From Acidimicrobiales bacterium (GTDB lineage Bacteria > Actinomycetota > Acidimicrobiia > Acidimicrobiales > RAAP-2), in the NCBI GenBank assembly GCA_017883065.1, contig JADGOG010000001.1:1-61933 (forward strand): DNA of 61,933 nucleotides, in the 5' to 3' direction. The position numbers and the translations under genes were made by a program. Positions 12,075 to 34,269 of this stretch are shown in pieces. The first letter of the stretch is position 1, and every line of letters begins with the position of its first letter. The notes beneath the pieces were generated by a model. The model saw only the letters and a list, made by a program, of their open reading frames with translations, was not told the DNA's origin and did no database searches.

Positions 12075-14000
12075 GTGTCGTCTCCCGGTGGAGCAACGGT
12101 GCCGGCCATGCCGTGCACCATGCCACTCGAACGCCCGACCGACGGAAGCACGACCATGGACCAACGGCCCGACATCCACGCGCCCGACCAGGCTGAAGTG
12201 CCTGAATCCGGCGAGGTCGACGGCGGGACGGTCGCCACCGAGGTCGCACCGGTCGACGAGACCCCGGATCGGGCCCTTCCCGGCCCGGGCCGGTCGGACC
12301 CACCGGACGTCGAGCGCTCGGTCCGGGCGCTGACCGTCGTCTTGGTGGTTGCCGCTGTCCTGATCGGCGCGTTCATCCGGGCGTGGTTGCTCTTCCACCA
12401 GGCGGTGACCTCCGACGAGGCGGTGGCCGGGCTGATCTCCCATCAGATCCTCCACGGGCACACCTACGCGTTCTTCTGGGGCCAGCCGTTCGGTGGTGTC
12501 GAGCCCTACGTGGTGGCCGCGGTCTTCGCCGTGCTGGGTCAGAGCAGTCTCACGCTGGGCCTGGCCCCGGTCCTCCTCTCCGCCGTCGCCGCCGTGCTGG
12601 TGTGGAGGGTGGCACTCCGTCTGGTGGGAAGTCCTGCGGTGGCGGTCCTGGCCGGTGCCCTGGCTTGGGCGTCCCCCTTCCCGGTGGTCTTCACCTCGAC
12701 CGTCGAAGGCGGGTACCGCGGTGTCACCCTGGCCTGTGGACTGGCCGTCCTCCTGGTCAGCCTCCGTGTCCTCGACGGCAAGTTCCACTACGCGGAGTTC
12801 GTGGCGCTGGGCCTGGTCACCGGTCTGGGATGGTGGTCGTTGCCGGAGATCGCCTACTTCCTGATCCCCGCCGGTCTCGTCCTGGCGGGGGCGATGGTGC
12901 AGTCGTCGAGAGCGGGCGACCTGGCCCGGTGGGCAGGTCGGGCCGGAGTGGCCGTCGTGGCCTTCGTCGTGGGTGCGTTCCCCTGGTGGTGGACGAACCT
13001 CGGGTCCGGGTTCGCCTCGCTCGACACCAGCAAGTTCCCCGGCTCGATCACCCCGCTCAATCCCGGCTACGGAGGCCGGCTACGGATCTTCTTCAAGTTC
13101 ACCCTGCCCATGTATGCGAACCTCCGGAGGCTGAGTACGGGCGGGTGGCTGTTCGGTGGTAGTGGGTCGTCGTTCCACCGGGTCCTGGTGGCCAGTGCCG
13201 TCGCCCTGATCGCCGCCGTCCTGGTCGGCGCGCTGATCCTGTGCTTCCTGCGAGGTGGCAGGTGCATCGCCCTCGGAGTGGCCGCCCTCCTCTACCCGTT
13301 CCTGGTCGCGCTGCAGCCGGGGACCTGGTTCTGGCAGGACGGCAGATACACGGTGTACCTGGGCCCTCTGCTGGCCCTGGTGCTGGCCGTGGCCTGCGTC
13401 GAGCTGGCGGCACGGATCGGTGGCAGCGCCCGGTCGGGTGCGGCCCACGGGCCATCCCGCCGCCGGGTGGCCGGACTGTCCCTGATGAGCGTGGTGGTGG
13501 CCCTCTCGCTGGCGCTGACGATGGTCGACTTCCACCAGTCGTTCTCGGTGACGGCCCGCGGCCTGGTCGCCAAGTGGGGCAATCCCGATGCGGCCGCTGC
13601 CGCCACCGCCGGCGCGCTCGAGGCCAAGGGGATCCGTACCGGCTACGCCGACTACTGGGTCGCCTACAAACTCGACTTCTTGAGTCGCGGCGGCTTGTCG
13701 CTGACCGTGGCCGGCACCGATCCCGACCGGTGGGGGTCCCTGGCCGAGGAGGTGCGGAACTCGAAGGCGCCGGCCTGGCTCTTCGTCCCCCCGGACCGGA
13801 TCCCGGCCGGCCTGCAGCAGTTCGCACAGACCGGGAACATCCAGGGACCGAGCGGTCTGACCGAGGCCCGGTTCCTCGCTGCCCTGCACCGCCTCGGCAT
13901 CCCCCACACGACGGTCGACGCCGGCCCGATCCAGGCGGTGATCCCTGCCCGCCCGGTCCAACTGCACGATGACGGACGAGTGACCGCGGCCGGGGCATGA
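12075..14000 (+). CDS. polytopic membrane glycosyltransferase, GT-C fold (GT39/ArnT/PMT-like)
   Basis: 641 aa with many hydrophobic spans. After the first span, the first loop carries ..LFHQAVTSDEAVAGLISHQILHG.., resembling the acidic DE loop motif of PMT/ArnT-type enzymes. A large soluble C-terminal domain follows. The start is uncertain (ATGs at 12108, 12120, 12156). Confidence 0.65.
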   Translation: MSSPGGATVPAMPCTMPLERPTDGSTTMDQRPDIHAPDQAEVPESGEVDGGTVATEVAPVDETPDRALPGPGRSDPPDVERSVRALTVVLVVAAVLIGAFIRAWLLFHQAVTSDEAVAGLISHQILHGHTYAFFWGQPFGGVEPYVVAAVFAVLGQSSLTLGLAPVLLSAVAAVLVWRVALRLVGSPAVAVLAGALAWASPFPVVFTSTVEGGYRGVTLACGLAVLLVSLRVLDGKFHYAEFVALGLVTGLGWWSLPEIAYFLIPAGLVLAGAMVQSSRAGDLARWAGRAGVAVVAFVVGAFPWWWTNLGSGFASLDTSKFPGSITPLNPGYGGRLRIFFKFTLPMYANLRRLSTGGWLFGGSGSSFHRVLVASAVALIAAVLVGALILCFLRGGRCIALGVAALLYPFLVALQPGTWFWQDGRYTVYLGPLLALVLAVACVELAARIGGSARSGAAHGPSRRRVAGLSLMSVVVALSLALTMVDFHQSFSVTARGLVAKWGNPDAAAAATAGALEAKGIRTGYADYWVAYKLDFLSRGGLSLTVAGTDPDRWGSLAEEVRNSKAPAWLFVPPDRIPAGLQQFAQTGNIQGPSGLTEARFLAALHRLGIPHTTVDAGPIQAVIPARPVQLHDDGRVTAAGA

Positions 14001-14043
14001 TCGAGTCGGCGAGGGCCCGCGAGCCACTGGCTATAGTCACTCC

Positions 14044-15174
14044 GTGCCACCAGCGCAGTCGTCCACACCTCCGGTGGCTCCCGTAGAGCCGGATTCGCCG
14101 TCCTCGGGGGAGGAGCTGGACGCCGCCGGGCGGGCCCGCTACCTCGACGAGGTGATGGCCGACATCGATGCCGAGGTCAAGCGAAGGCGCGCCTCGGGAG
14201 ACCTCCCCGCCGGTCTCGAGCAGGAGCTCGACGAGCTGTTCCTCGAGTTCTCACCTGTGGGGCTCCAGGGCAAGGCCAGGCTGCGCGAGACGCTGGCCCT
14301 GGTCGACAGCTCGGCCTACGTGGACATCGCCGTCCCCGTCGAGTCCCAGAAGGTGGTGGGGACCTACGTCAAACGGCTCATCCGCAAGACGATGGGCTGG
14401 TACCTCGGGTTCATCGTCCACCAGATCGTCAAGTTCGCCTGGTCGGTGTCGCGCATGTTCCACGTGGTGGTGGCGCACGTCGAGGACCTCGAGGCCGAGG
14501 TGGGGACGCTGCGGATCCCGGAGCTCCCCTACAGCGCAGTCCCGGTCGCCGTACCGGGGTCGACCTGGTGGGCGCCTGACGCGGTGGCCGCGCTCACCGG
14601 GGTCCGTGGGCGGGTACTGCACGCCGACTGCGGCGACGGCTCGCTCGTCGACACCCTGATCGCTGCCGGCGTCGACGCCTACGGTGTCGATCCGTCGGAG
14701 GCGGGCATCGAGTCGGCCATCGAGCGGGGCACCGACGTCCGGGCCGAACCGATGCTCGGCCATCTCGAGGTGGTGGGCGACGAGGCGCTGGCCGGCATGG
14801 TGCTGAGCGGATCCGTCCAGTGGCTCCATCCGAACGAGCGTGACCGGCTGGTACGCATGGCCACCACCCGCCTGGCGGTGGAGGGCGTGCTGGTCATCCA
14901 CTCGTCGACGCCCGAGTCCTGGACGGCGGCGACCTCCCCACTGGTCAGCGACCTGGCGCCCGGCCGACCCCTGCATGCAGAGACCTGGACGCACCTCCTG
15001 CACCTCCATGGCCTTCGCACGACCGCGCTGCACACCGGTGGGGACGACCGCCGGATCGATCCGATCCCCTTCTCGAACCCGGACGCCCCGGCGATCAATG
15101 CCGCCATCGTGGCGGTCAACGAGCGCCTGTTGGGCCCGGGTGAGTATCTCCTGGTCGCTGTCCGGGAGCGGTGA
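14044..15174 (+). CDS. class I SAM-dependent methyltransferase with long helical N-terminal region
   Basis: 376 aa with a GTG start. The N-terminus is charged and helical-looking (EELDAAGRARYLDEVMADIDAEVKRRRASGDLPAGLEQELDELFLEF). Motif I-like VLHADCGDGSLV and later VLVIHSSTP are present. It is paralogous to 17517-18500 (shared DLAPGRP.H.ETW tail). Confidence 0.7.
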   Translation: MPPAQSSTPPVAPVEPDSPSSGEELDAAGRARYLDEVMADIDAEVKRRRASGDLPAGLEQELDELFLEFSPVGLQGKARLRETLALVDSSAYVDIAVPVESQKVVGTYVKRLIRKTMGWYLGFIVHQIVKFAWSVSRMFHVVVAHVEDLEAEVGTLRIPELPYSAVPVAVPGSTWWAPDAVAALTGVRGRVLHADCGDGSLVDTLIAAGVDAYGVDPSEAGIESAIERGTDVRAEPMLGHLEVVGDEALAGMVLSGSVQWLHPNERDRLVRMATTRLAVEGVLVIHSSTPESWTAATSPLVSDLAPGRPLHAETWTHLLHLHGLRTTALHTGGDDRRIDPIPFSNPDAPAINAAIVAVNERLLGPGEYLLVAVRER

Positions 15175-16265
15175 CCGCCATCCACCAGTTCGTCCCGGCG
15201 CTGTTGCCGAGGGACGCCACTGGAGATCACACGCTGGCACTCCAATCGGCCCTCCGGCATGCCGGGTTCGAGTCGGACATCTATGTCGAAGCGGCCCATG
15301 ACGACCTGTGGCACCTGGCCACCTACTTCGAGGCCTATGCCGAGCGGGCGAAACCCGACGACCTCCTCGTCTACCAACTGAGCACGGCGTCCCCGCTGGC
15401 CGACTTCCTGCTGGACCGGCCGGAACGTCTGGTGCTCGACTACCACAACATCACCCCGTCGTCGTTCTACGAGTCGTGGGAGGACCACACCGCCGAGAAG
15501 GTGGAGCTGGCCCGGAGTCAGATGGTGGCCCTGGCACCTGCAGCCGTGCTCGGCATCGCCGACTCGGCGTTCAACGCCTCCGAACTGCGCCACTTCGGGT
15601 GCCCGGCCACTGCGGTCATCCCCATCCTGGTGGCCATCGGCGGCGAAGCACGCGTTCCCGATCCGGCCGAGTCGGCCCGCCTCGGCCGCGACCACGGCAG
15701 CGCCACCGTGTTGCTGTTCGTCGGCCGGCTCTCGCCCAACAAGGCCCAACACCACCTGGTCGAGGCGCTGTGGCTCTACCGGCGTTGGTACGACCCGGGG
15801 GCCCGGCTCCACCTGGTCGGCCCGGCCGTCACCCCGGCGTACGCCGAGGCGGTGTTCGCTCTGGCCGCCTCGCTGGGGCTGGGCGACGCCGTGCGACACG
15901 GCGAGGACCTCACCGACGGGCAGTTGGCCGCCTGGTACGCGGACGCCGATGTCTTCGTCTGCCTGTCCGAGCACGAGGGCTTCTGCATCCCCCTGCTGGA
16001 GGCCATGCACGCCGGACTTCCCATCGTCGCCCACGGGGCCGGGGCGGTGCCCGAGACGCTGACGGACGCCGGCATCCTGCTGGAGTCGAACCGACCCGGG
16101 GTGGTGGCCGCGGCCGTGCACCGGGTGGTCACCGACCGCCCGCTTTCCGACCGGATGGTGGCGGCCGGTCACCGACGACTCGACGCCTTCGCCCCGTCGA
16201 CGACCCGCGCCCGGTTCGTGGAGGTGCTCGGTCAGCTGGCCGGACAGAAGGGCCGGGTGGCATGA
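15171..16265 (+). CDS. glycosyltransferase family 4 (GTa paralog 1)
   Basis: 364 aa. The GTG start overlaps the upstream stop (GTGA). GT-B/GT4 signature ..LSEHEGFCIPLLEAMHAGLPIVAHGAGAVPETL.. The N-terminus IHQFVPALLPRDATGDH is shared with 18514 and 22604. Confidence 0.85.
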   Translation: MTAIHQFVPALLPRDATGDHTLALQSALRHAGFESDIYVEAAHDDLWHLATYFEAYAERAKPDDLLVYQLSTASPLADFLLDRPERLVLDYHNITPSSFYESWEDHTAEKVELARSQMVALAPAAVLGIADSAFNASELRHFGCPATAVIPILVAIGGEARVPDPAESARLGRDHGSATVLLFVGRLSPNKAQHHLVEALWLYRRWYDPGARLHLVGPAVTPAYAEAVFALAASLGLGDAVRHGEDLTDGQLAAWYADADVFVCLSEHEGFCIPLLEAMHAGLPIVAHGAGAVPETLTDAGILLESNRPGVVAAAVHRVVTDRPLSDRMVAAGHRRLDAFAPSTTRARFVEVLGQLAGQKGRVA

Positions 16266-17509
16266 AGCTCACCTTCGTCACCCCCCGCTACGGCACGGAG
16301 GTCATCGGCGGTGCCGAGACGGCGGCCCGCATGCTGGCCGAGCGCCTCTGTCGACGCTCCGACTGGGAGGTCGAGGTCCTGACCAGCTGCGCCCTGGACC
16401 ACCTCACCTGGGAGAACTCCGAGGCAGCCGGCACCACCGTGATCAACGGCGTCGAGGTGCACCGGTTCCCGACCGCCAGCCGTCGCCAGCTCGACTACTT
16501 CGAGCTCGACGCCAAACTCAGGGTGTCGCCGACCACCGCACCACTCGAAGAGTCCAGGCGGTGGGTGGCGCTCAACGGTCCGATGTGCCCGGACCTGGTC
16601 GACGCGGTGGCCACCAGTGACGCCGACGTCATCGCCTGCTATCCCTACCTGTTCGCCACCACGGTCGACGCCATCGCCGTGTCGAAGGTTCCGACGATCC
16701 TCCACCCGGCCGCTCACGACGAGCCGGCCCTCTACCTGTCCGCCTTCCGTCAGAGCTTCCGGGACATCGACGGGCTGGTGTACCACACCCAGGCCGAACG
16801 GGACCTGATGGAGTACGCCTTCGGTATCGGGGCCCGGCCACAGATCGTGTTGGGCCTGGGCGTCAACGATCCGGCCGGCGGCGGGCGGAGGGGGAGCGAG
16901 CTGCTCGGGCTGGGCGACCGGCCCTACCTCTGCTACCTGGGCCGGGTGGACGAGCACAAGGGCTGCGGCATGCTGAGCGAGTACTTCCAGCGCTACAAGG
17001 AGCGACACCCCTCGGACCTGGCCCTGGCCTTCGTCGGTCCGGTGTCGGACAAGGCGCCCGACCATCCGGACATCGTGGTGACAGGCACCGTCTCGGAGAC
17101 GGACAAGTGGGACATCCTCGGCGACGCCCAGGTGATGGTGACCCCCTCGGCGTACGAGTCGTTCTCGCTGGTGGTGCTGGAGGCATGGGCCGTCGGGGTG
17201 CCCGTCCTGGTCAATGCGTCGTGTGCGGCAACCATGGAGCACTGCCGCCGTTCGGGCGGCGGACTGTGGTTCGAGTCGTTCCGGTCGTTCGAGGTCACCG
17301 TCGACCGGCTGGTGGCGGACCGGGCCTTCCGGGACCGGCTCGCCGAGGCCGGACTGCAGTACACGTCGCGCTACTACCGGTGGCCGTCGATCATCGACCG
17401 GTACGCCGGCTTCCTCGACTCGGTGGTGGAGCGCGGTCCCCGCCCGACCATCCGGACCGGTCGCCTGCCACTCCCGGCCCGTGGCCCCGAGTACGTTCGG
17501 GAAGGATGA
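16262..17509 (+). CDS. glycosyltransferase family 4 (GTb paralog 1)
   Basis: The track ORF 15308-17509 is trimmed to the ATG at 16262 (ATGA overlap). MKLTFVTPRYGTEVIGGAETAARMLAERL..., then ..PSAYESFSLVVLEAWAVGVPVLVN.. (E-x7-E region). It is highly similar to 23784-24989. Confidence 0.85.
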   Translation: MKLTFVTPRYGTEVIGGAETAARMLAERLCRRSDWEVEVLTSCALDHLTWENSEAAGTTVINGVEVHRFPTASRRQLDYFELDAKLRVSPTTAPLEESRRWVALNGPMCPDLVDAVATSDADVIACYPYLFATTVDAIAVSKVPTILHPAAHDEPALYLSAFRQSFRDIDGLVYHTQAERDLMEYAFGIGARPQIVLGLGVNDPAGGGRRGSELLGLGDRPYLCYLGRVDEHKGCGMLSEYFQRYKERHPSDLALAFVGPVSDKAPDHPDIVVTGTVSETDKWDILGDAQVMVTPSAYESFSLVVLEAWAVGVPVLVNASCAATMEHCRRSGGGLWFESFRSFEVTVDRLVADRAFRDRLAEAGLQYTSRYYRWPSIIDRYAGFLDSVVERGPRPTIRTGRLPLPARGPEYVREG

Positions 17510-17516
17510 GGACTCC

Positions 17517-18500
17517 ATGAGCGCGGACGACCCGACCGATCACGAGGCGGACGACGACGGGACGACCGAGGCCGAGCGCGAGCTGCTCGCCGCCTTCGAC
17601 CGCCTCCGTCCCCAAGGTGGGGTCCGCTGGGCCTTCGACGACGCGCTGCGTCGGGTGGACCAACCCGACCTCGACTCCTCGGCCGGCGCGCACCCCTGGG
17701 CCGGCCTTCCCGACGACCTCTGGGACCGCGGGCGATCGGCCCGGATCGGTGAGCGGTTCGTGGGGGAGGTGGCCCGGGTCATGGCCGACCTGTTGGCGGC
17801 CGACGCCCGGGCGGCCGCCGATGCCGCAGTGTCCGCGGTCAACGGTGACCGGTTCGTGGCCACCTGGGACGCGTTGCAGTATCTGTCGGCCCGAGTCGAG
17901 GCGCTCGAGCGACGGGTCGACCCCCTCGGCCTCGAGGCCGCCGAATGGCCGGTTCCCTCCCCGGATGTGTCCGGGTGGCACGACGCCGTGCGGGGTTGGC
18001 TCGGCGACGACGTCCCGAATGGACCGGTGATCGTGGGTGAGTCCGGGGACGGTGCTCTGGTGGCTGCCCTGCGCCACGACGGCCGGGAGGTGCTCGGCAT
18101 CGAGCCCCGGGGGAGTGCGGTGTGGACCTCGTTCGACGATGAGGTGCCGGGCATCGTCTTCGACCACGTGGACCGCCATCTGCGCTCGGTCGACCGACGC
18201 AGTGCCGCCGGCGTGGTCCTGATCGGCTGCATCGACCGCGCCGATCTGGCCGGCAAGGTGGACCTGCTCGACCAGGCCCTGAGGATCACCAGGCCCGGAG
18301 GGGTCCTGGTGCTGCTGGGCACCGACCCGTCCGCGTGGGACGGCTCGCTCACCGTCCCCGCCCGGGACCTGGCGCCGGGGAGGCCCTTCCATCCGGAGAC
18401 CTGGTGTCTCCTCCTTCGGCGGGCCGGGTTCGTCGACCCGGTGTGGCACCGTTCCGACGGAGGGGTCGCGCAGGCAGTGGTGGCCAGGGTGGAGCGATGA
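17517..18500 (+). CDS. SAM-dependent methyltransferase-like protein (paralog of 14044-15174)
   Basis: The track ORF 17214-18500 is trimmed to the ATG at 17517 (MSADDPTDHEADDDG...). It has a helical N-terminal region ending in LSARVEALERRV, a weaker motif I VIVGESGDGALV, GGVLVLLGTDPSAW, and the tail DLAPGRPFHPETW. Confidence 0.65.
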   Translation: MSADDPTDHEADDDGTTEAERELLAAFDRLRPQGGVRWAFDDALRRVDQPDLDSSAGAHPWAGLPDDLWDRGRSARIGERFVGEVARVMADLLAADARAAADAAVSAVNGDRFVATWDALQYLSARVEALERRVDPLGLEAAEWPVPSPDVSGWHDAVRGWLGDDVPNGPVIVGESGDGALVAALRHDGREVLGIEPRGSAVWTSFDDEVPGIVFDHVDRHLRSVDRRSAAGVVLIGCIDRADLAGKVDLLDQALRITRPGGVLVLLGTDPSAWDGSLTVPARDLAPGRPFHPETWCLLLRRAGFVDPVWHRSDGGVAQAVVARVER

Positions 18501-18513
18501 CCGGGTGGCCCCG

Positions 18514-19608
18514 ATGACCGGGATCCACCAATTCGTCCCCATGCTCCATCGACACGATGCTGTGGGAGTGCACACGCGCACCCTCCGCGACCGGGTAGTG
18601 GCGGCAGGGATGTCCTCGCGCATCTACACGGAGATCCCCGATCCACTCACCCGCGACGAGACACGGCCCTACCTCGACTACGAGTCGGAGTGCGAGCCCG
18701 GTGACGTGCTCGTCTACCAATTCGCCACCCAGTCCGTCGTCGCCGATTGGGTGGCCGACCGTCCCGAGCCGGTGGTCCTCGACTACCACAGCATCACCCC
18801 GCCCGAGTTCTTCGGTCCATGGAACAACGGGATCACCCGTGGCCAGGTCGGAGCCCTGCACCAGCTGGCCCGGATGGCGCCCAAGGCGCGGCTGGGGATC
18901 GCCCACTCGCAATTCATCGCCGACGAGCTGCAGCGGGCCGGATGCGCGCTGACCACGGTCATTCCGGTGGCCGGCGTGCCGGTGCCCCCCACGGAGCCGA
19001 GTGCTGACACGGTGGCGTGGCTGCGGTCCCGTCGGCAGGGTGCAGGTCATCAGTGGCTGTCGGTCGGCCGTCTGGCGCCGAACAAGCGTCACGAGCAGAC
19101 CATCGCCGCCCTCTTCGTCGCCCGGACCTCTTCGGACCCTGGAGCGTGCCTGACCATTGTGGGATCGCCGACCGAGGCCTCCTATGCCCGGGCGCTGCGG
19201 ACGTACGCGGCGGCACTCGGTCTGGCCGACGCCGTCGTCTTCGTGTCAGGTATCAGCGACGAGGACCTGGCCGCGCACTACCGGACCGCCGACGTCCTGG
19301 TGATGCTCTCTGATCACGAGGGGTTCGGGGTGCCCCTGGTCGAGGCGATGGGTCACGGCCTCCCCGTCGTCGCCTATGACGGGGGTGCGGTCGGGGAGAT
19401 CCTCGGTGGGGCGGGGACCCTCCTCGGCACCAAGCATCCACGCCTGGTGGCGGACCAGGTGGCCGGGCTGCTGGCCGATGCGGAAGCGGTAGAGGAGCGG
19501 CGACGGGCGGGCAGGTCGCGCTTCGATGCGTTGGGCCTGGCCGACGTCGGTGATCGCCTGTTCGAGGCGGTCCTGAGCGCCTCTCGACCCGGTCCGAGAG
19601 ATCCCTGA
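18514..19608 (+). CDS. glycosyltransferase family 4 (GTa paralog 2)
   Basis: The start is chosen at the ATG at 18514 (MTGIHQFVPML..) because it aligns with the MTAIHQFVPAL of paralog 1; a GTG at 18505 is also possible. ..LSDHEGFGVPLVEAMGHGLPVVAYDGGAVGEIL.. Confidence 0.85.
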   Translation: MTGIHQFVPMLHRHDAVGVHTRTLRDRVVAAGMSSRIYTEIPDPLTRDETRPYLDYESECEPGDVLVYQFATQSVVADWVADRPEPVVLDYHSITPPEFFGPWNNGITRGQVGALHQLARMAPKARLGIAHSQFIADELQRAGCALTTVIPVAGVPVPPTEPSADTVAWLRSRRQGAGHQWLSVGRLAPNKRHEQTIAALFVARTSSDPGACLTIVGSPTEASYARALRTYAAALGLADAVVFVSGISDEDLAAHYRTADVLVMLSDHEGFGVPLVEAMGHGLPVVAYDGGAVGEILGGAGTLLGTKHPRLVADQVAGLLADAEAVEERRRAGRSRFDALGLADVGDRLFEAVLSASRPGPRDP

Positions 19609-19672
19609 CGGGGACCGGGTCCGGTCCGGGCCTGCGTCCGTGGGCAGACCTGAGCCACTAGGCTCTGGCCGC

Positions 19673-20341
19673 ATGGACGACACCCGCCACTTGGCTCTGC
19701 ACGCCTCCACCCCCCTCAGTGAGGGCCGTTCCCTCGAGATGCAGTCCGGTGCCGAGGTCGGTCCGGGCACCGACATCTTCCAGCGGCTGCTCAAGGAGCG
19801 GATCGTGTTCATCGGCTCGGCCATCGACCAGAACACCGCCAACCTTGTCTGCTCCCAGCTGATCCTGCTCGAGGCCGAGAATCAGGAGCGGGACATCTCG
19901 GTGTACATCAACTCGCCCGGTGGTTCGGTGACCGACGGCCTGGCCATCTACGACACCATGCAGTACGTGCGCTGCGACGTGCGCACCATCTGCGTGGGCC
20001 TGGCTGCGTCGATGGGCCAGTTCCTGCTGTGCGCCGGCACCCCGGGCAAGCGCTTCGCCCTGCCCCACAGCCGCATCCTCATGCACCAGCCCTCGGGCGG
20101 CATGCAGGGCCAGGCCTCCGACATCGCCATCCAGGCCGAGCAGATCATGTACCTGAAGCGGATGATGGCCGAACGCATCGCCTTCCACACCGGCCAGCCG
20201 CTGGAGCGGATCGAGGCGGACTCCGACCGTGACCGTTGGTTCACCGCCGAGGAGGCACAGGAGTACGGCTTCATCGACGAGGTCATCCAGAAGGACGCCA
20301 TGGACGTCCCGACTGCCGGGGCGGGGGCTGCCGGCAAGTGA
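19673..20341 (+). CDS. clpP: ATP-dependent Clp protease proteolytic subunit ClpP (ClpP1-like)
   Basis: [18 protein letters not shown]...[64 protein letters not shown]. The Ser (AASMG), His (MHQP) and Asp (DRD) triad positions are all present. The start is uncertain (GTG 19640, ATG 19673, or the internal ATG giving MQSGAEVG). Confidence 0.9.
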
Positions 20342-21324: not shown

Positions 21325-21327
21325 CCG

Positions 21328-22596: not shown

Positions 22597-22603
22597 ACTG
22601 CCG

Positions 22604-23692: not shown

Positions 23693-23783
23693 GTGCCCAC
23701 TCGAGTGCGCATCCCGCCCGCCCGTAGCCGCCGTGGCTGCGGCCTACCGACGATGGTGCATGCTCGATGACAGCGGTGCTCCG

Positions 23784-27137: not shown

Positions 27138-29417
27138 ATGGAAGCAGTACCGGACATGAGGAATGCAGCCGACGGCCGGAAGGCCGAGAGGAGTTGGTTC
27201 CGCCGGGGCGCCACCGGAGGCATTGCCGTACTCGGAGTGTTCGGATCGATGGCGGGAGCAGGGGCGCTTGCCGGCCCGGCCCAGGCCGCGTCGCCCGCCC
27301 CCCATGCCGGGGTGGCCACCTCCCTCACCTGGCAACAGGTTCTCCCCGACGCCGGCTCGCCCATCGGGCAGAGCTCACCCTCGGAGGCCACCCTCGACGG
27401 CGGGGGTCCCTCGACGGTGGTGGGGGATCGCGCCGGCAACGTCTGGGCCTTCCACCTGGCCAACGGTTCACCGGTCCGGGGATGGCCGGCCCAGGCGGGT
27501 GGACCGGTCGATTCGACCCCGTCCTCCAGCCCGAATGGCACCGGCACCGACACGGTGTTCGTGGGCTCGGGGAACGCGGCGAATCCACGAGTGGGCGGCT
27601 ATCACGCCTTCGCCAACACCGGCGCGTCGTTGTGGAGTCGCAATGCCCAGGACCCCAACGGCCTCTATGGCGTCCAGGCTTCGCTGTCGGTGGGAACACT
27701 CAACGGAGTGAGGGGTGTGGCGGCCCCGTCACTCGGCCAAGAGGCGTACGCCCTCAACGCCGCAAACGGCTCGTCGCTCCCCGGCTGGCCTTTCTTCACC
27801 GCGGACAGCGGCTTCACCACGCCCTCGCTCGCCAACCTCTACGGGAACGGCCAGACCGAGGTGGTCGAGGGCGGGGACTCCTCGGCCGGTATCGCCAATG
27901 GACAGACCTATACGTCGGGCGGGCACCTGCGGATCCTGGACGGGGGCGGGAACCTGATCTGCCACTTCGACACCAACCAGACCGTCGACTCCTCGACGGC
28001 GGTGGGCAACTTCCTGGCCGGTGGCCAGGTGGGAGTTGCCTTCGGCACGGGATCGTTCTTCCGGGGGGCATCCGACTCCAACATGCTGTTCGGCTCCGAC
28101 TCCCACTGCAACATCGTCTGGCGGAGCAACCTCGGTGGCAACACCGTGGGGAGCCCGGCCATCGGGGACATCGTGGGTGACGGGAACGTCGAGGTCATCG
28201 AAGGCGCCGACACCGGCTCCGGCGGCCTGGTGTGGGCGCTCAACGGCGCCAACGGCACGCCGGTGCCCGGATGGCCCCAGCGGACCTCGGGCCGGATCAT
28301 CGGTGGCATCACCACCGCCGACCTCACCGGCGGCGGGTACAACGACGTCCTGGTCCCGACCACCAACGGTCTGGTCATCTACGACGGTCGCAGCGCACAG
28401 GTGGTGGCCACGCTGGGGGCCGGCGTGATGGGCCTGCAGAACTCCGCCATGGTGGCCATCGACCCGAACGGCACCATCGGGATCACCATCGCCGGCTACA
28501 GCTCGCAGAACGCCGGGATCATCCAGCACTACGAGGTCGCCGGCTCGACCGGGCACTCGTTGGGCAAGCGGGCCTGGCCGATGTTCCACCAGAACCCGCA
28601 GTTGACCGGATGGCTGAGCCAGCCGGCCCCCGGGCACCTGAACAGGCCGATCGTGGGCATGGCCGCCACCGGGGACGCCAAGGGGTACTGGAACGTGGCC
28701 ACAGACGGAGGGATCTTCTCCTTCGGGGACGCCTCCTTCCACGGCTCGACCGGGAACCTGCGGCTGAACAGACCGATCGTGGGCATGGCCGCCACTCCCG
28801 ATGGAGGCGGGTACTGGCTGGTGGCCAGTGACGGAGGCATCTTCTCCTTCGGCGACGCCCGCTTCTTCGGCTCCACCGGCAATCTCCACCTGAACAGACC
28901 GGTCGTGGGCATGGCCGCCACTTCCGACGGCAAGGGCTACTGGATGGTGGCCTCGGACGGCGGCATCTTCAGCTTCGGCGACGCCCGCTTCCACGGCTCC
29001 ACCGGCAATCTCCATCTGAACAGACCGGTCGTGGGCATGGCCGCCACTCCCGATGGAGGGGGGTACTGGATGGTGGCCTCGGACGGCGGCATCTTCTCCT
29101 TCGGGTCGGCCCGGTTCTTCGGCTCGACCGGGAACCTGCGCCTCAACCAGCCGGTGGTGGGCATGACGCCCACTCCCGATGGCCACGGGTACTGGTTCGT
29201 GGCCTCGGACGGAGGCATCTTCTCCTTCGGCGACGCCCGCTTCTTCGGCTCGATGGGGGGAAAGCACCTCAATCTGCCCATCGTGGCCATGGCCTCCAAC
29301 CACGGGAACGGCTACTGGTTGGCAGCTGCAGACGGCGGCCTCTTCTCCTTCGGGAGCGCCCCCTTCTACGGCTCGATGCCCCAGGTGTTCGCCTCGCAGG
29401 TCACCGGGGTCGACTGA
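27138..29417 (+). CDS. secreted FG-GAP/VCBS-type beta-propeller protein with C-terminal 6 x 42-aa GYW/SDGG repeat module
   Basis: 759 aa. The signal peptide has RR (..RSWFRRGATGGIAVLGVFGSMAGAGALAGPAQA), possibly Tat. The N-terminal half shows alternating ..NG.P..GWP.. and FG-GAP-like calcium-loop motifs (LYGNGQTEVVEGG, IVGDGNVEVIEGA, LTGGGYNDVLVPT). The C-terminal 250 aa consist of six tandem repeats. Confidence 0.8.
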   Translation: MEAVPDMRNAADGRKAERSWFRRGATGGIAVLGVFGSMAGAGALAGPAQAASPAPHAGVATSLTWQQVLPDAGSPIGQSSPSEATLDGGGPSTVVGDRAGNVWAFHLANGSPVRGWPAQAGGPVDSTPSSSPNGTGTDTVFVGSGNAANPRVGGYHAFANTGASLWSRNAQDPNGLYGVQASLSVGTLNGVRGVAAPSLGQEAYALNAANGSSLPGWPFFTADSGFTTPSLANLYGNGQTEVVEGGDSSAGIANGQTYTSGGHLRILDGGGNLICHFDTNQTVDSSTAVGNFLAGGQVGVAFGTGSFFRGASDSNMLFGSDSHCNIVWRSNLGGNTVGSPAIGDIVGDGNVEVIEGADTGSGGLVWALNGANGTPVPGWPQRTSGRIIGGITTADLTGGGYNDVLVPTTNGLVIYDGRSAQVVATLGAGVMGLQNSAMVAIDPNGTIGITIAGYSSQNAGIIQHYEVAGSTGHSLGKRAWPMFHQNPQLTGWLSQPAPGHLNRPIVGMAATGDAKGYWNVATDGGIFSFGDASFHGSTGNLRLNRPIVGMAATPDGGGYWLVASDGGIFSFGDARFFGSTGNLHLNRPVVGMAATSDGKGYWMVASDGGIFSFGDARFHGSTGNLHLNRPVVGMAATPDGGGYWMVASDGGIFSFGSARFFGSTGNLRLNQPVVGMTPTPDGHGYWFVASDGGIFSFGDARFFGSMGGKHLNLPIVAMASNHGNGYWLAAADGGLFSFGSAPFYGSMPQVFASQVTGVD
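28638..29393 (+). repeat. six in-frame tandem repeats, period 126 nt (42 aa): LN.P.VGMA.TPDG.GYW.VASDGGIFSFGDA.F.GSTGNL
   Basis: Direct reading shows six units: LNRPIVGMAATGDAKGYWNVATDGGIFSFGDASFHGSTGNLR, LNRPIVGMAATPDGGGYWLVASDGGIFSFGDARFFGSTGNLH, LNRPVVGMAATSDGKGYWMVASDGGIFSFGDARFHGSTGNLH, LNRPVVGMAATPDGGGYWMVASDGGIFSFGSARFFGSTGNLR, LNQPVVGMTPTPDGHGYWFVASDGGIFSFGDARFFGSMGGKH, LNLPIVAMASNHGNGYWLAAADGGLFSFGSAPFYGSM. Confidence 0.9.
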
Positions 29418-29496: not shown

Positions 29497-29570
29497 GACT
29501 AGTCAGAGTGCCGACACCGACCATGCGGCCATCACGGAGAGTTGAGAAGTCAGTGGGACGGGAAAGGACG

Positions 29571-31538
29571 ATGGCGACCACGGTGCGAACCCGCAAGCGG
29601 TCGTGGGTGGCGCGGTTCGTGGCCGCTGCGGTCATCGGATCCGGACTGGGCGTGGCTGTGACTTCGCTGCCGGCCTCGGCCTATCCGTCGTCGACGGTCT
29701 CCTTCGTGGGCCACGGCTACGGACATGGCCACGGCATGGGCCAGTGGGGTGCCCTCGGCTACGCCCTGTCCCAGACCGGTTACCAGTCGATCCTCGGGCA
29801 CTACTACGGAGGAACGTCGCTGGTCGGTGGCGTGTCCGACCAGCCGATCCGGGTGGCCCTGACCGAGAACAACGACAACACGGTGATCGTGACGTCGGGC
29901 TCGGGCCTCACCGTGCCAGGAACGCCGGTCGCCGCGGCAGCCGTGGAGATGGTCCCGACCGGGTCGAACCAGTGGACCGTCTATCAGGGGCCGGGGTGCG
30001 GGGGGCCATGGACGCAGGTGGCGACGACAGCCGACCCGACGGCGGTGCCCAACGGCCCGCAGCTGCTCCAACTCTGTCAGGGTGGTGGCAATCTGACAGT
30101 CCACGGCAACATCCAGGCCACCTACAACTCGGCCGGTGCGGCACGCACGGTCAACAGCCTGCCCCTGGAGCAGTACGTGGCCGACGTGGTGCCCAACGAG
30201 TCACCTGCAGGGTGGGGGACGTTCGGAGGTGCGGGACCCCAGGGCCAGGCCTGGGGATTCCAGGAGCTGGAAGCCCAGGCGGTGGCCGTGCGCTCCTACG
30301 CCATGGCCGGCATCGGGTCCTACGGGGGGTACGCCGACATGTGTGACCTGAGTTGCCAGACCTACCGGGGAACCCTCCACGAGAGTGCCATCACCAACCT
30401 GGCCGCCAGTGTCACTGCCGGTCAGGTGATGAGGTTCGCATCGGGAGCGGTGGCCGCCACCCAGTACTCGGCCTCGACCGGTGGCTACACGGCACCAGGT
30501 GCGTTTCCGGCGGCCCCTGATGCGGGGGACGCGGTGTGCGTGCAGGGTTGGTGCAACACCAGCCACACCTGGACGGCGTCGATCCCCGTGTCGACGATCG
30601 ACGCCACTTGGCCCCAGCTCGGGTCACTCCAGTCGATCAGCATCACCGCCCGCAACGGGTTCGGCGACTGGGGTGGGCGGGTCAACTCGATGGCCCTGAT
30701 CGGGTCCAGCCAGACTGTCGTGCTCTCCGGGGACGCCTTTGCCGGTGCCCTGGGACTGAAGTCGGACTGGTTCACCACCTCCACCTCGCTGGGCAGCCCG
30801 GCGGTGGGCATGGCCTCGACCCCGGACGGTGGCGGCTACTGGATTGCCGGCGCCAATGGCGCAGTCGGAGCCTTCGGTGACGCCGGCTTCCACGGATCGG
30901 CCAGCGACCTCACCCTGACCCGTCCGGTCGTGGGCACTGCGGCAACCCCCGATGGAAGTGGCTACTGGCAGGTGGCGTCCGACGGAGGCGTCTTCAGCTT
31001 CGGTGCCGCCCGCTTCCACGGATCGACCGGCAATCTCCGCCTCAACCAACCCATCGTGGGCATGGCGTCCACCGCCGACGGCGGCGGCTACTGGATGGTC
31101 GCCTCCGACGGCGGCATCTTCTCCTTCGGCGACGCCCACTTCTACGGCTCGACCGGCAATCTCCGCCTCAACCGACCGGTGGTGGGCATGGCGACCACCT
31201 CGGACGGGATGGGGTACTGGCTGGTGGCGTCCGACGGCGGAGTCTTCTCCTTCGGCGACGCCCGGTTCTACGGCTCGACCGGGAACCTGCGCCTGAACCG
31301 ACCGGTGGTGGGCATGGCGACGGCGCCCGGCGGCGGCTACTGGATGGTCGCCTCCGACGGCGGCATCTTCTCCTTCGGCAGTGCACGGTTCCGCGGGTCG
31401 ACCGGAAACCTTGCCCTGGTGAAGCCGGTGGTGGGCATGGCGTCCACCTCCGACGGCGGCGGCTACTGGATGGTCGCCTCCGACGGCGGCATCTTCTCCT
31501 TCGGCGACGCCGCCTTCCACGGGTCCGCCGCCGGATAA
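29571..31538 (+). CDS. secreted SpoIID/LytB-domain protein with C-terminal 6 x ~42-aa GYW/SDGG repeat module
   Basis: The track ORF 29508-31538 is trimmed to the ATG at 29571 (GGAAAGGA upstream). Signal peptide ..VAAAVIGSGLGVAVTSLPASA. SpoIID hallmarks VSFVGHGYGHGHGMGQWGALGYA, LEQYVADVVPNESPAGWG and ELEAQAVAVRSYA are present. The C-terminal 249 aa form six repeats of the same family as in the upstream gene. Confidence 0.85.
   Translation: MATTVRTRKRSWVARFVAAAVIGSGLGVAVTSLPASAYPSSTVSFVGHGYGHGHGMGQWGALGYALSQTGYQSILGHYYGGTSLVGGVSDQPIRVALTENNDNTVIVTSGSGLTVPGTPVAAAAVEMVPTGSNQWTVYQGPGCGGPWTQVATTADPTAVPNGPQLLQLCQGGGNLTVHGNIQATYNSAGAARTVNSLPLEQYVADVVPNESPAGWGTFGGAGPQGQAWGFQELEAQAVAVRSYAMAGIGSYGGYADMCDLSCQTYRGTLHESAITNLAASVTAGQVMRFASGAVAATQYSASTGGYTAPGAFPAAPDAGDAVCVQGWCNTSHTWTASIPVSTIDATWPQLGSLQSISITARNGFGDWGGRVNSMALIGSSQTVVLSGDAFAGALGLKSDWFTTSTSLGSPAVGMASTPDGGGYWIAGANGAVGAFGDAGFHGSASDLTLTRPVVGTAATPDGSGYWQVASDGGVFSFGAARFHGSTGNLRLNQPIVGMASTADGGGYWMVASDGGIFSFGDAHFYGSTGNLRLNRPVVGMATTSDGMGYWLVASDGGVFSFGDARFYGSTGNLRLNRPVVGMATAPGGGYWMVASDGGIFSFGSARFRGSTGNLALVKPVVGMASTSDGGGYWMVASDGGIFSFGDAAFHGSAAG
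30789..31535 (+). repeat. six in-frame tandem repeats (123-126 nt) of the same GYW..SDGG.FSFGDA family
   Basis: The units begin LGSPAVGMASTPDGGGYWIAGANGAVGAFGDAGFHGSASDLT, LTRPVVGTAATPDGSGYWQVASDGGVFSFGAARFHGSTGNLR, LNQPIVGMASTADGGGYWMVASDGGIFSFGDAHFYGSTGNLR, LNRPVVGMATTSDGMGYWLVASDGGVFSFGDARFYGSTGNLR, LNRPVVGMATAPGGGYWMVASDGGIFSFGSARFRGSTGNLA, LVKPVVGMASTSDGGGYWMVASDGGIFSFGDAAFHGSAAG. A 52-nt string (CGGCGGCGGCTACTGGATGGTCGCCTCCGACGGCGGCATCTTCTCCTTCGGC) occurs exactly three times, at 31079, 31328 and 31454. Confidence 0.9.
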
Positions 31539-31569
31539 CCGACCGGCCGATGGGACCGAGAGCAGCCCA

Positions 31570-34269
31570 GTGCCACGTCCTAAGGTGCTGCGTGCGATGA
31601 CCGAACGCACGAACCATGGCAGTCCCGGCCCCGAACTGCAGGCACCGGCAGCCTCCTCTGAGGCGGCCCGTCCGGCCGCCGGCGCGCCTCCGGCGGCTGA
31701 CGATGGGTCCGCCGCCTCCGTCGCAGTCCCGACATCCACGGCCAGGCTCGGCCGGTGGCGTCAGGGAGCAGGGACGTGGCAGGCGATCCTCTTCGCCCCG
31801 ATAGGAGACGGGCAGACCCGGCGCAGGGGATCGGATGCCTTCCGGCTCGGGACCGCCCTGGTAGTCGTCTTCCTGTGTTGGCTCTTCACCCACGCCAACT
31901 CGAATGCCGAGCACGGGATCGCCACCACGCTCGCCTCCCCGCCGAACGGGCTCCGCTGGCTCGTGTCGGCCATCTGGTGGATCACGTCGTTCGGCGTGAT
32001 CGTGGTGATCGCCGCTCTGGCCCTGATCCACCGGAAATGGACAGCGGTCCGTGACATTGCCATCTCGGGGACCGGCGCCTGGCTGCTCTGTGTGCTCTCG
32101 GCGCTCCTCTTCGGCTCCACCGGCGGGCGGCCCCCCACCACGTCCCTGGTTCACTTCGACCTGTCGTTCCCCGTGGCGAGGGTGGCGGCCACCGTGGGCG
32201 TGGCCACGGCGGCGCTGCCCTACCTGAGCCGGTTGCTGCAGCGCTGCATCGAGGTGGGGATCGTGCTGCTGGCGGTGGCGTCGGTGGTCAACGGCTCCGG
32301 ACTGCCGGTCGCCGTCCTGGCCAGCCTGGCGGTCGGCTGGGGAGTCACCGCTGTGGTCCATCTGATCTTCGGATCACCCCTGGGCCTGCCCTCGTCCGCC
32401 GAGGTGACCGTGCTCCTGGACGATCTGCAGATCGCCGCCGAGGGGATCACCCCGGTGGCCCGCCAGGCATGGGGTGTGGGACGGTTCACCGGTCGGGTGG
32501 GCAGCGCTCCGGTCGACGTCTCGGTATACGGACGGGATGCCTCTGACGCACAGCTCCTGGCCAAGACCGGGCGGTTCCTCTTCTACCGGTCGTCGGGCCC
32601 CACGCTCGCTTTCACCCGCCGCCAACAGGTCGAGCACGAGGCGTACCTGACCCTGATGGCGGCGCGTGCCGGGGCCCGGGTTCCGGTGGTCCTGGCCGCC
32701 GGTCCGGCCGGTCCGGCGCGAGACGCTCTTCTGGTGACCCAGCCCCCCGCCGGGGACCGGCTGTCGTCGTTCGCCGCCTACGTCCCGCCCCCGGCATCGG
32801 AGGACTCCGGAGCCGACGCCTCCGGCGACCGGGCATCGGAGGACACCGGGTCGTCCGCACCGCCCCCGGCCGCTCCCGATGACGCAGTCGACGGTGCGCC
32901 GGTCGTCGACGACGCGGCCATCGACGACGTCTTCACCCAGGTGCTCCGCCTTCGCAACGCCGGGATCGCCCATGGCGCCCTCTCCACCGAAACGGTCGTG
33001 GTGGACGGTGAGGGCCGGGCCGGCCTCATCGACTTCAGATCGGCACTGACCGTCGCTCCGCCCGACGACCTCAACCGGGACACCGCCGCCGTCCTGGCTG
33101 CCGCCTCGGTGACGGTGGGGCCGGACCGGGCCGTCGCCTCGGCGGCCCGGGTCCTGCCCTCCGATGTGCTGGTGCAGGCCCTGCCCTTCCTGCAGCGGGC
33201 GGCACTCGACCCGGTGGCCTCCCGCACCTTGCGGGGCAAGAAGTCCATGCTCACCTCGGCCAGGGCGCAGGGGGCGGCGACGGCCGGCGTGGAGACACCC
33301 AAGCTCATCGAACCCCGACGGGTCAGCTGGGTCAACCTCGTGCTCGTCGTCGGCACGCTGATCGGCGGGTGGGCCCTGATCGGCGTCCTGGTCAACGTGG
33401 GCAAGTCGTGGAGCACCATCACCGGGGCCAAGTGGGGATGGGTGGCCGCCACGTTCGTCCTGGCCCAGGCCGCCTACCCGGCCATCGCCGCCACCACCGT
33501 GGGCTCGGTGACCAGCACCCTGCCCTACGGCCGCACGGTCGCCCTCGAGGTGGCCGATACCTTCGTGGCCCTGGCCGGCGGCTCGATGGCCACGCTGGCC
33601 ACCCGGGTCCGCTTCTTCCAGCAGGAGGGCCTCAGTCCCACCGTGGCGGTGAGTTCGGGCGTGCTGGTCAGCACCGCAAGTTGGATCGTCAAGGGCGCAC
33701 TGTTCCTGATCGCCCTTCCGCTCGCCATCGGCCAGCTGCACTTCCACGCGGAGTCGGACACCCCGAGCAACGGGAACGCCCACCTGGTGTGGCTGATCGT
33801 GATCGTGGTGCTGGTGGTGGGGGTGGCCGTCGGTCTCCTCTTCGCCGTCCCCCGCTGGCGGCGCATGGCCACCGAGAAGGTGCGGCCCAAGGCATCCGAG
33901 GTGTGGGCCCACCTCAAGGTGCTGGCCTCCCGGCCGCGCAATCTGATCGAGATCTTCGGGGGAAGCGCCCTGGCCCAGATCTTCGTGGCCCTGGCCCTCG
34001 GCGCCGCCCTCCACGCCTTCGGTGACCGCCTCGGCCTGGCCACCCTGCTGGTGGTGCTGACCATGGCCTCGATGCTCGGGGGCATCTCGCCGGTTCCCGG
34101 CGGGATGGGGGTGGTCGAGGCCGGCATGATCCTCGGGCTGACCGCCGCCGGGATCAGTCAGCCCGACGCGGTGGCGGCCACCTTCGTCCAGAGGCTGTTC
34201 ACCGCCTACCTGCCGCCGATCTGGGGTTGGTTCGTCCTGGTGTGGCTGCGCAGGCGCGAGTACCTGTGA
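31570..34269 (+). CDS. large integral membrane protein: N-terminal TM bundle + degenerate protein-kinase-like domain + C-terminal flippase-like (LPG synthase TM/UPF0104-type) domain
   Basis: 899 aa (GTG 31570, or ATG 31597). About 6 hydrophobic spans are followed by a soluble region with kinase-like landmarks (VDVSVYGRD.., EHEAYLTLMAARAGARVP, AGIAHGALSTETVVVD, GLIDFRSA). A second bundle of about 8 spans ends in MLGGISPVPGGMGVVEAGMILGL, the P.PGG.G..E signature of the MprF-flippase/UPF0104 family. Confidence 0.7.
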   Translation: MPRPKVLRAMTERTNHGSPGPELQAPAASSEAARPAAGAPPAADDGSAASVAVPTSTARLGRWRQGAGTWQAILFAPIGDGQTRRRGSDAFRLGTALVVVFLCWLFTHANSNAEHGIATTLASPPNGLRWLVSAIWWITSFGVIVVIAALALIHRKWTAVRDIAISGTGAWLLCVLSALLFGSTGGRPPTTSLVHFDLSFPVARVAATVGVATAALPYLSRLLQRCIEVGIVLLAVASVVNGSGLPVAVLASLAVGWGVTAVVHLIFGSPLGLPSSAEVTVLLDDLQIAAEGITPVARQAWGVGRFTGRVGSAPVDVSVYGRDASDAQLLAKTGRFLFYRSSGPTLAFTRRQQVEHEAYLTLMAARAGARVPVVLAAGPAGPARDALLVTQPPAGDRLSSFAAYVPPPASEDSGADASGDRASEDTGSSAPPPAAPDDAVDGAPVVDDAAIDDVFTQVLRLRNAGIAHGALSTETVVVDGEGRAGLIDFRSALTVAPPDDLNRDTAAVLAAASVTVGPDRAVASAARVLPSDVLVQALPFLQRAALDPVASRTLRGKKSMLTSARAQGAATAGVETPKLIEPRRVSWVNLVLVVGTLIGGWALIGVLVNVGKSWSTITGAKWGWVAATFVLAQAAYPAIAATTVGSVTSTLPYGRTVALEVADTFVALAGGSMATLATRVRFFQQEGLSPTVAVSSGVLVSTASWIVKGALFLIALPLAIGQLHFHAESDTPSNGNAHLVWLIVIVVLVVGVAVGLLFAVPRWRRMATEKVRPKASEVWAHLKVLASRPRNLIEIFGGSALAQIFVALALGAALHAFGDRLGLATLLVVLTMASMLGGISPVPGGMGVVEAGMILGLTAAGISQPDAVAATFVQRLFTAYLPPIWGWFVLVWLRRREYL

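Follow-up and report, generated by a model that had tools for sequence, protein, structure and literature searches.

A stretch of 61,933 nucleotides from an Acidimicrobiales bacterium (GenBank assembly GCA_017883065.1, contig JADGOG010000001.1; referred to here as the window) encodes two adjacent secreted proteins that end in the same module of 42-residue repeats. Structure prediction gives, with high confidence, a six-bladed beta-propeller with 42-residue blades for this module, and judged from the proteins in which it occurs, it probably acts as a general non-covalent cell-wall-binding domain of Acidimicrobiia. The two genes belong to a block of cell-envelope genes that has been conserved within a lineage of soil Acidimicrobiales, and they lie beside an operon predicted to make and export a glycan. 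That this glycan is the ligand of the module is a more tentative proposal.

The first-pass annotation of the window had described two neighbouring secreted proteins with unrelated N-terminal regions and a shared C-terminal module of six 42-residue repeats, and this description held, as six repeats were found in each protein. A tblastn search with a single repeat detected no further copy in the window. The repeats follow the motif GYW...DGG.FSFGDA.F.GS. Most blades are 64-90% identical to one another, with lower values for the least regular blades, A6 and B1, and the two modules are 70% identical. Both proteins carry signal peptides, and that of the protein encoded from position 27138 (the 27138 protein) contains an RR motif. 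The N-terminal region of this protein, annotated as a propeller of its own, indeed matches a designed 8-bladed propeller in a profile search of the PDB (E 9e-26), and among its orthologs Beta-prop_ACSF4 is matched in 24 of 25 and FG-GAP_3 in 17 of 25. By its domain content, the second protein (29508-31538) is a SpoIID/LytB peptidoglycan-remodelling protein.

A six-bladed propeller had been suggested for the repeat module, with AlphaFold as the check. The model, generated from a 34-sequence alignment, agrees with this suggestion: it has a mean predicted local distance difference test (pLDDT) score of 92.7, a predicted template modelling (pTM) score of 0.88 and six equivalent blades, each of three DSSP strands. 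Foldseek comparison with the PDB returned generic WD40-type and RCC1-type propellers with template modelling (TM) scores of 0.55-0.64. The best PDB match by sequence was a YVTN propeller, with a weak E-value of 0.012.

The module had also been called private to this locus, and here the database searches pointed the other way. An exhaustive HMMER search of 1.84 billion representatives of 50%-identity clusters placed 19,847 clusters in the family at E<=1e-3, of which 9,826 also passed E<=1e-30, and at 90% identity the family comprises at least 7,996 clusters. All the organism names among the listed matches are Acidimicrobiia or Acidimicrobiales, and the other named entries are generic. In Pfam and NCBIfam scans of the two window proteins, every match fell outside the module. 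Pfam matches of homologs to Ribosomal_L24e, RNR_Alpha and CSD were considered as the identity of the module and rejected as spurious; a short stretch of the repeat gives the Ribosomal_L24e match, which accounts for JGI names such as "ribosomal protein L24E" (homologs with spurious matches or wrong names include P0001, P0051, P0049 and P0117). Neither the module nor any of 63 complete metagenome proteins and 68 complete viral proteins of the family matched the profiles of SLH, CWB2, choline-binding, LysM, SH3b, PG_binding, LGFP or SPOR repeats, and the module proteins gave no match to Tachylectin or another lectin family of Pfam. Text searches of the literature on propellers or the cell wall of Acidimicrobiia and Acidimicrobiales and on beta-propeller endolysins gave no description of the module, and a paper on propeller amplification does not mention the family. 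Collectively, the module family is very large, undescribed and without a curated family or a solved structure. Genes carrying the repeat often occur as adjacent pairs (L081, L107, L108, L112, L117, L134, L157 and L163), and some are very large, with open reading frames (ORFs) of 1,950 and 3,530 residues in those paired-gene loci and of up to 3,029 residues among the cluster representatives. The repeat is also present on phage and cellular contigs of 38-46% GC (L162, L176, L180-L182 and L213), which suggests a host range extending well beyond the soil clade of 70% GC.

The case for wall binding comes from the company that the module keeps. Fusion partners were read from the top family matches and from the 63 complete metagenome proteins, in which the module is found at either terminus. 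Peptidoglycan enzymes are prominent and include NlpC/P60, YkuD, CHAP, M23, VanY, Amidase_3 and SpoIID domains, together with Amidase_2 in loci of a second Acidimicrobiia clade described below. Other enzymatic partners are polysaccharide deacetylase, GH114, GH5, GH43, Peptidase_S8 and A4, while CAP, TIG and several other propellers make up the non-enzymatic ones. Such a range of partners is the one known for surface anchors like SLH and CWB2.

Phages provide a second line of evidence. Viral contigs contain 91 relatives of the module, including 68 complete ORFs, mostly of 220-390 residues, in which an N-terminal catalytic domain is followed by two or three C-terminal repeats. The N-terminal domain is Amidase_2 in 50 of the 68, and up to 43 of the 68 have a match to endolysin families of PHROGs. 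Two blades were counted in 35 ORFs of these phage endolysins and three in 15 (loci L171-L250, for example L176:724-1632). In the L176 ORF and in the alignment consensus the amidase domain begins about 20 residues into the protein, so the phage amidases appear to lack a signal peptide. Contig L213 encodes head, tail and tape-measure proteins and is thus a true phage; its repeat ORF (L213:5560-6237) has a tail-fibre-like gene on one side and the tape-measure gene on the other. In the GenBank phage MK557849.1 from mangrove soil (L251:1639-5553), repeat-like units occur in a 1,304-residue "GH25" protein encoded after a minor tail protein. Neither of these two proteins is a plain endolysin, and they could be receptor binders or virion-associated lysins. 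For the large viral repeat proteins (769-1304 residues), PHROGs yielded no informative assignment.

Because phages place the module where endolysins carry their wall-binding domain, it is very probably wall-binding. The wall-active fusion partners, the predominance of Amidase_2 endolysins among the viral ORFs and the predicted propeller together give good support to the non-covalent wall anchor that the first-pass annotation had proposed. Most likely, the propeller would bind a repeating carbohydrate of the wall multivalently and so keep exoproteins there, and phages would have taken it over to give their endolysins a wall-binding tail. Since closure of the ring takes six blades, phage tails with two or three blades would need to assemble as trimers or dimers.

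The neighbourhood of the two genes was studied by a Wzt scan of a genome collection, which identified 390 relatives of the window's Wzt in species genomes; the best 80, one per species and 75-90% identical, were taken as loci. Their genomes are labelled as Acidimicrobiales, Acidimicrobiaceae or unclassified actinobacterial metagenome-assembled genomes. The block had been described as lying outside the conserved core gene order, a view that does not fit its synteny in these best 80 of the 390 relatives. The order methyltransferase, GT4, GT4, methyltransferase, GT4, ClpP, Wzm, Wzt, GT4, GT4, convergent GT-C, propeller-repeat and SpoIID-repeat gene is kept. A variable island beside a tRNA gene was considered and rejected in view of the same synteny; only the first GT-C gene of the block would fit it. 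The upstream flanking gene is also syntenic, as are the downstream ones where the flank is long enough; in particular, the gene for a flippase-like protein follows the SpoIID gene wherever the available flank allows.

Fifty-eight loci were informative, with at least 9.5 kb of sequence downstream of Wzt. The GT-C gene is present in 50 of them, at least one repeat module lies within 10 kb in 54 and at least two modules do so in 46. Three loci (L001, L020 and L079) keep the repeat proteins and have no GT-C gene of the type found at 24990-26912, and in four the GT-C and repeat genes are jointly missing from the 10 kb downstream of Wzt. An apparent loss of both in L057 was rejected, as a 9-kb insertion had moved them beyond the fetched flank; the genes are still linked (L057/L170). 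In three further loci an extra repeat-bearing gene lies upstream of the operon (L009:19-672, L012:2-634 and L042:206-2335), the one in L042 being a paralog of the propeller-repeat protein, so that repeat genes bracket the operon on both sides.

The arrangement recurs in a second clade of Acidimicrobiia, whose Wzt proteins are 45-49% identical to that of the window and also carry Wzt_C. Repeat genes were found at six of six loci selected by Wzt, and L107 shows the same arrangement. In L165, L166 and L167, genes for Amidase_2-repeat, SpoIID-repeat and S8-repeat proteins are divergent from and directly beside Wzm-Wzt; in L164, L168 and L169 the repeat genes are 1-8 kb away. These loci also contain GT4s, methyltransferases and GT-C enzymes of other families (AftB_C and Mannosyl_trans2). 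The gene order is rearranged and the repeat proteins have different N-terminal domains (Amidase_2, Peptidase_S8 and SpoIID), with SpoIID orthologs flanking Wzm/Wzt in this clade as well. Because the linkage has been kept through rearrangement and through a change of partner domain, it is more than the inertia of one clade, and this two-clade linkage is the best support for the idea that the polymer is the ligand.

Several observations weigh against an anchor specific for this polymer. In a sample of 92 repeat genes at 83 loci (776 kb, nearly all unselected metagenome loci), only four genes were near a Wzm/Wzt pair (L100 and L107). Two other repeat paralogs, on 5-Mb contigs, lie among housekeeping genes. 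Assuming a single such locus with two or three repeat genes in every genome, this frequency would imply tens of repeat copies per genome. Comparison of the two clades gave 58-63% identity for the SpoIID protein's repeat domain, as against 40-42% for its catalytic domain, 45-49% for Wzt, 41-51% for Wzm and 33-46% for the GT4s. With a module that has changed less than the polymer-defining enzymes, peptidoglycan or another conserved ligand is at least as good a fit. Within a clade, the loci come from related species, and their counts are not independent events. Furthermore, if the module is a default anchor, any exoenzyme encoded beside an envelope locus would carry it, and adjacency would say little about the ligand. 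Other points count against the wider reading of a wall anchor beside a glycan pathway. Foldseek searches against the PDB and viral models yielded generic propellers and no known lectin. A scan of the 15 block genes and 10 other window genes detected neither an initiating phosphoglycosyl transferase nor an LCP or WaaL-type ligase, though these may be encoded elsewhere. Finally, wall binding itself is read from domain architecture alone.

The first-pass annotation had proposed the polymer of the adjacent operon as the ligand, and the evidence bears on this proposal from both sides: the gene neighbourhood recurs in two clades, but few of the sampled repeat genes share it and the module outconserves the machinery. 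In its specific form, the module would be a lectin for the glycan of the neighbouring operon and the Acidimicrobiia counterpart of SLH with its secondary cell wall polymer (SCWP) or of CWB2 with polysaccharide II (PSII). This is less likely than not. It would explain why the neighbourhood has outlived inversions, rearrangements and a change of the N-terminal enzymes, why three loci have extra repeat genes on the other side of the operon and why linkage outlasted the insertion in L057/L170. A multivalent propeller also suits a repeating glycan, and there are precedents in the CWB2 genes that lie partly beside the PSII locus (PMC10100865) and in the phi11 propeller (PMC6115969). The low frequency of repeat genes at Wzm/Wzt loci, the divergence of Wzt and GT4s relative to the module, the change of GT-C family between clades and the presence of the module on phage and cellular contigs of low GC all fit it poorly. 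Binding to peptidoglycan itself or to a universally conserved wall motif, with adjacency arising from the clustering of envelope genes and inherited order, is a serious contender that we place somewhat short of an even chance. Peptidoglycan hydrolases are among the commonest partners, phage amidases included; the module spans hosts of 38-73% GC and outconserves the polymer-specific genes; about 96% of the sampled copies are away from a glycan locus; and, with flanking genes syntenic too, conservation within a clade may be largely inertia. On the other side, the linkage survives rearrangement between two distant clades, the partners of the module also include a cellulase, GH43, proteases and CAP/TIG proteins, like the display repertoires of the polymer-binding SLH and CWB2 modules, and the module resembles none of LysM, SH3b, PG_binding and SPOR. 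The probability left beside these two ligands falls to another wall polymer or to some other ligand.

Two further readings fare much worse. A propeller that serves as a scaffold for protein-protein interaction or oligomerization, or as a catalytic domain, would agree with the WD40-type interaction propellers among its nearest structural matches, and blades as similar as these can arise by recent amplification without a specific ligand (a general point; PMC9218822). Such a role is very improbable given the C-terminal position of the module in phage amidases without a signal peptide, its promiscuous fusion at either terminus to unrelated secreted enzymes and the strong conservation of its sequence across about 20,000 clusters. 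It is also quite improbable, if slightly less so, that the operon is a protein glycosylation system whose GT-C enzyme attaches the glycan to the secreted repeat proteins encoded next to it. In favour of this, ArnT, oligosaccharyltransferases and protein O-mannosyltransferases are similar to the GT-C model, which also has a weak TMEM260-like match; its gene is divergent from the repeat genes and is jointly missing with them from the 10 kb downstream of Wzt in four loci; and Wzt_C and the methyltransferases fit capped glycans. A system of this kind is the Geobacillus S-layer glycan cluster, in which an ABC-transporter-dependent, methyl-capped glycan is encoded next to the gene of its target protein. 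Still, the structural match is generic for GT-C enzymes, with TM scores of about 0.4, the second clade pairs the same repeat proteins with AftB_C and Mannosyl_trans2 enzymes, the GT-C gene is lacking in L001, L020 and L079 although the repeat proteins are present, and the endolysin tails are left unexplained.

Taken as a whole, the most complete form of the polymer proposal is a display system of Acidimicrobiia in which a lectin-type propeller reads the exported, probably methyl-capped glycan of the adjacent locus and tethers tens of exoenzymes per cell, while phages exploit the same target with endolysins whose tails of two or three blades come together as a complete propeller. This full chain of steps is less likely than not. 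Irrespective of the ligand, the favoured reading of the operon is that the five GT4 enzymes would build a lipid-linked glycan in the cytoplasm, the two paralogous methyltransferases would probably modify or cap it, Wzm/Wzt would export it and the GT-C-fold enzyme may work on it outside the membrane.

The operon itself was annotated as 11 co-directional genes. The genes and their domains were found, but the conserved operon comprises ten of them, and the first, a GT-C-like gene at 12075-14000, is absent at that position in all 80 related loci; of these, only L039 has a homolog (35% identical), located elsewhere. The gene was apparently added upstream of the conserved operon in one lineage. From their domains, the genes at 14044-26912 are an ABC-transporter-dependent glycan pathway. 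An ABC-2 permease gene and an ABC ATPase gene are adjacent, and the ATPase has a C-terminal Wzt_C domain, which in characterized systems recognizes the glycan terminus. The start codon of Wzm is uncertain, its ORF opening at 20236. Methyltransferase 1 consists of an N-terminal extension of about 180 residues and a class I S-adenosylmethionine-dependent methyltransferase domain that is MetW-like, and it is 58-77% identical in most related loci. A Pfam scan of methyltransferase 2 gave no match, and BLASTP aligns it with methyltransferase 1 (29% identity over 196 residues, E 1e-14); these two paralogs may have a role in capping the chain. The ATG of GT4b overlaps the stop codon of GT4a. GT4a, GT4c and GT4d are mutual paralogs of 41-46% identity, and GT4b and GT4e are about 50% identical. 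Because both GT4s and methyltransferases have been duplicated within the operon (14044-24989), the glycan may be built by repeated two-enzyme modules. A full-length ClpP gene is embedded between GT4c and Wzm. All loci of the window's clade that cover this site have the gene there (78-95% identity), whereas the examined loci of the second clade showed none; why a glycan operon should include a subunit of a cytoplasmic protease is not obvious.

The second GT-C-like membrane protein (24990-26912) is encoded convergently with the operon and divergently from the repeat-protein genes. Its assignment in the first-pass annotation is strengthened by the AlphaFold model (pLDDT 73.5, pTM 0.77), whose top 19 Foldseek matches in the PDB are all GT-C enzymes, among them ArnT, ALG9, STT3, AglB, AftA, Pmt4, DPY19 and ALG3 (TM-scores 0.28-0.41, probability 0.95-1.0). 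The first external loop has two aspartates, D93 and D95, that do not vary among 39 homologs. A search returned 278 homologs at E<=1e-10, and the organism names among the listed matches are all Acidimicrobiales. The two GT-C-like proteins of the block share no significant similarity.

The last gene of the block (31570-34269) had been annotated as encoding a flippase-like protein with a pseudokinase region. The flippase-like part is supported by LPG_synthase_TM, whereas the pseudokinase call, which would liken the protein to the pseudokinase-coupled flippase MviN of mycobacteria, relies on weak matches of the middle region (E 1e-3 to 0.1), namely a Bud32-like match at E 1e-3 and a kinase match in the PDB at E 0.1. 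The protein is not MprF, as it reaches 56 bits with bifunc_MprF, for which the cutoff is 600, and LPG_synthase_TM is present without a lysyl-phosphatidylglycerol synthase domain. In domain terms, it is a flippase-like membrane protein with a C-terminal MprF-type domain. The addition of GT-C enzymes and of this protein to the pathway suggests further steps outside the membrane.

The 15 genes reported earlier were all found at or near their expected positions. They extend from a tRNA-Leu gene to the AhpC/PNPase genes and show strong third-position GC bias. The GC content of the window is about 70%, with a dip to 0.63 at 20001-22000, which spans ClpP-Wzm-Wzt. Elsewhere in the window, 50329-52197 encodes a 622-residue Peptidase_S11 (D-Ala-D-Ala carboxypeptidase) protein with long flanking regions and without the repeat. 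The features of the block are listed in the table; the five GT4s, ClpP, Wzm, Wzt, SpoIID/LytB and LPG_synthase_TM all score above the cutoffs of Pfam or NCBIfam.

Table. Features of the envelope block and its left boundary in the window
Feature	Coordinates	Strand	Evidence and remarks
tRNA-Leu	11824..11906	-	ARAGORN; left boundary marker, outside the system
GT-C-like membrane protein (PMT_2)	12075..14000	+	PMT_2 27.5 bits, cutoff 26.1
Methyltransferase 1	14044..15174	+	MetW 28.9 bits, cutoff 21; Methyltransf_23
GT4 glycosyltransferase a	15171..16265	+	Glycos_transf_1 97 bits
GT4 glycosyltransferase b	16262..17509	+	Glycos_transf_1 61 bits; Glyco_trans_4_4
Methyltransferase 2	17517..18500	+	No Pfam match; paralog of methyltransferase 1
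GT4 glycosyltransferase c	18505..19608	+	Glycos_transf_1 91 bits
ClpP protease subunit	19640..20341	+	CLP_protease 270 bits; PRK00277 296 bits
Wzm, ABC-2 permease	20443..21324	+	ABC2_membrane 55 bits; candidate GTG start 20443
Wzt, ABC ATPase with Wzt_C	21328..22596	+	ABC_tran 79.7 bits; Wzt_C 46 bits, cutoff 30.4
GT4 glycosyltransferase d	22547..23692	+	Glycos_transf_1 110 bits
GT4 glycosyltransferase e	23784..24989	+	Glycos_transf_1 52 bits; start 23760 or 23784
GT-C-fold membrane glycosyltransferase	24990..26912	-	TMEM260-like 17 bits, sub-threshold; GT-C structural matches
Secreted propeller-repeat protein	27138..29417	+	Signal peptide with RR motif; N-terminal propeller of about 8 blades; C-terminal repeat module
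Repeat module of the 27138 protein	28638..29375	+	6 x 42 residues; single-repeat tblastn
Secreted SpoIID/LytB-repeat protein	29508..31538	+	SpoIID (PF08486) 50 bits, cutoff 23; TIGR02669 95 bits, cutoff 83
Repeat module of the SpoIID protein	30789..31526	+	6 blades, blade 1 divergent; single-repeat tblastn
Flippase-like membrane protein	31570..34269	+	LPG_synthase_TM 79 bits, cutoff 33

Acidimicrobiia are abundant in soils and waters, and their cell envelope is almost unstudied. The present analysis gives an uncurated family of about 20,000 clusters a testable role, as a class-wide wall anchor and as a targeting domain of endolysins, and by naming a candidate ligand locus it makes the composition of the Acidimicrobiia wall testable as well. 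The module fused to green fluorescent protein could be used as a probe for wall polymers, and the module could provide a host-range marker for uncultured phages. If the reading of the phage tails is true, a wall-binding propeller assembled from fragments of two or three blades would be a new structural solution among the binding domains of endolysins. What is new here is a very large, undescribed family of putative wall-binding propellers with a plausible cognate polymer locus; the principle of repeat anchors and wall polymers is known already from SLH, CWB2 and choline-binding proteins, which are its nearest functional counterparts.

Compared to known export pathways with Wzt_C, such as E. 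coli O9a (Wzm/Wzt/WbdD), the Pseudomonas common polysaccharide antigen and the Geobacillus S-layer glycan, the operon of the window is similar in combining Wzm, a Wzt with a C-terminal binding domain, several GT4s and methyltransferases. It differs in its presumably monoderm host, in the extra GT-C enzymes, the embedded ClpP and the MprF-type flippase-like protein, and in having no WecA-type initiator or ligase among the block genes. As for the module, an actinobacterial parallel is the LGFP repeat of Corynebacteriales, which is found at the C-terminus of mycoloyltransferases and is thought to hold envelope enzymes on the wall. Both are tandem repeats presumed to anchor envelope enzymes, but the motif and the repeat length differ and the module has no LGFP match in Pfam.

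Propellers are a known solution for multivalent sugar binding. Ralstonia RSL and Aleuria AAL are six-bladed lectins, tachylectin-2 is a carbohydrate-binding propeller, and RSL forms its six-blade ring from two-blade subunits, an assembly that resembles the one required of the phage tails with two or three blades. The module shares the fold with these proteins and with the phi11 propeller, although neither its structure nor its sequence matches any of them specifically. In phage phi11 itself, the receptor-binding protein contains a five-bladed propeller with a putative N-acetylglucosamine-binding cavity for wall teichoic acid (PMC6115969). The choline-binding repeats of pneumococcus and of phage lysins such as Cpl-1, which bind teichoic acid, are likewise short, aromatic-rich tandem repeats used for multivalent binding by lytic enzymes of both host and phage; these are 20-residue solenoid units, whereas the 42-residue blades would close into a propeller.

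The SLH domains of Bacillus, Paenibacillus and Thermoanaerobacter, which bind pyruvylated SCWP, offer a further parallel in that one repeat module is common to unrelated exoproteins, among them peptidoglycan hydrolases, glycosidases, proteases and surface proteins, displays them non-covalently and is encoded in some cases beside the genes for the polymer. The folds differ, a six-bladed propeller here compared to a three-helix trimer mimic in SLH; the module has no sequence relationship to SLH and no SLH match in Pfam, and a csaB-type pyruvyl transferase was not seen in the block. The CWB2/PSII system of Clostridioides difficile differs from the present one in fold and phylum, and its polymer locus follows the logic of an LCP ligase and an MviN-type flippase instead of Wzm/Wzt with Wzt_C and GT-C. 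It is nonetheless like the present system in the distribution of the genes, as several module genes adjoin the polymer locus but the majority of paralogs are dispersed. Many of the CWB2 genes of C. difficile are neighbours of the PSII locus and others are found elsewhere, and the proteins are anchored through PSII (PMC10100865). The endolysins of C. difficile phages, moreover, reuse the CWB2 module of their host as a wall-binding domain (PMC9045149).

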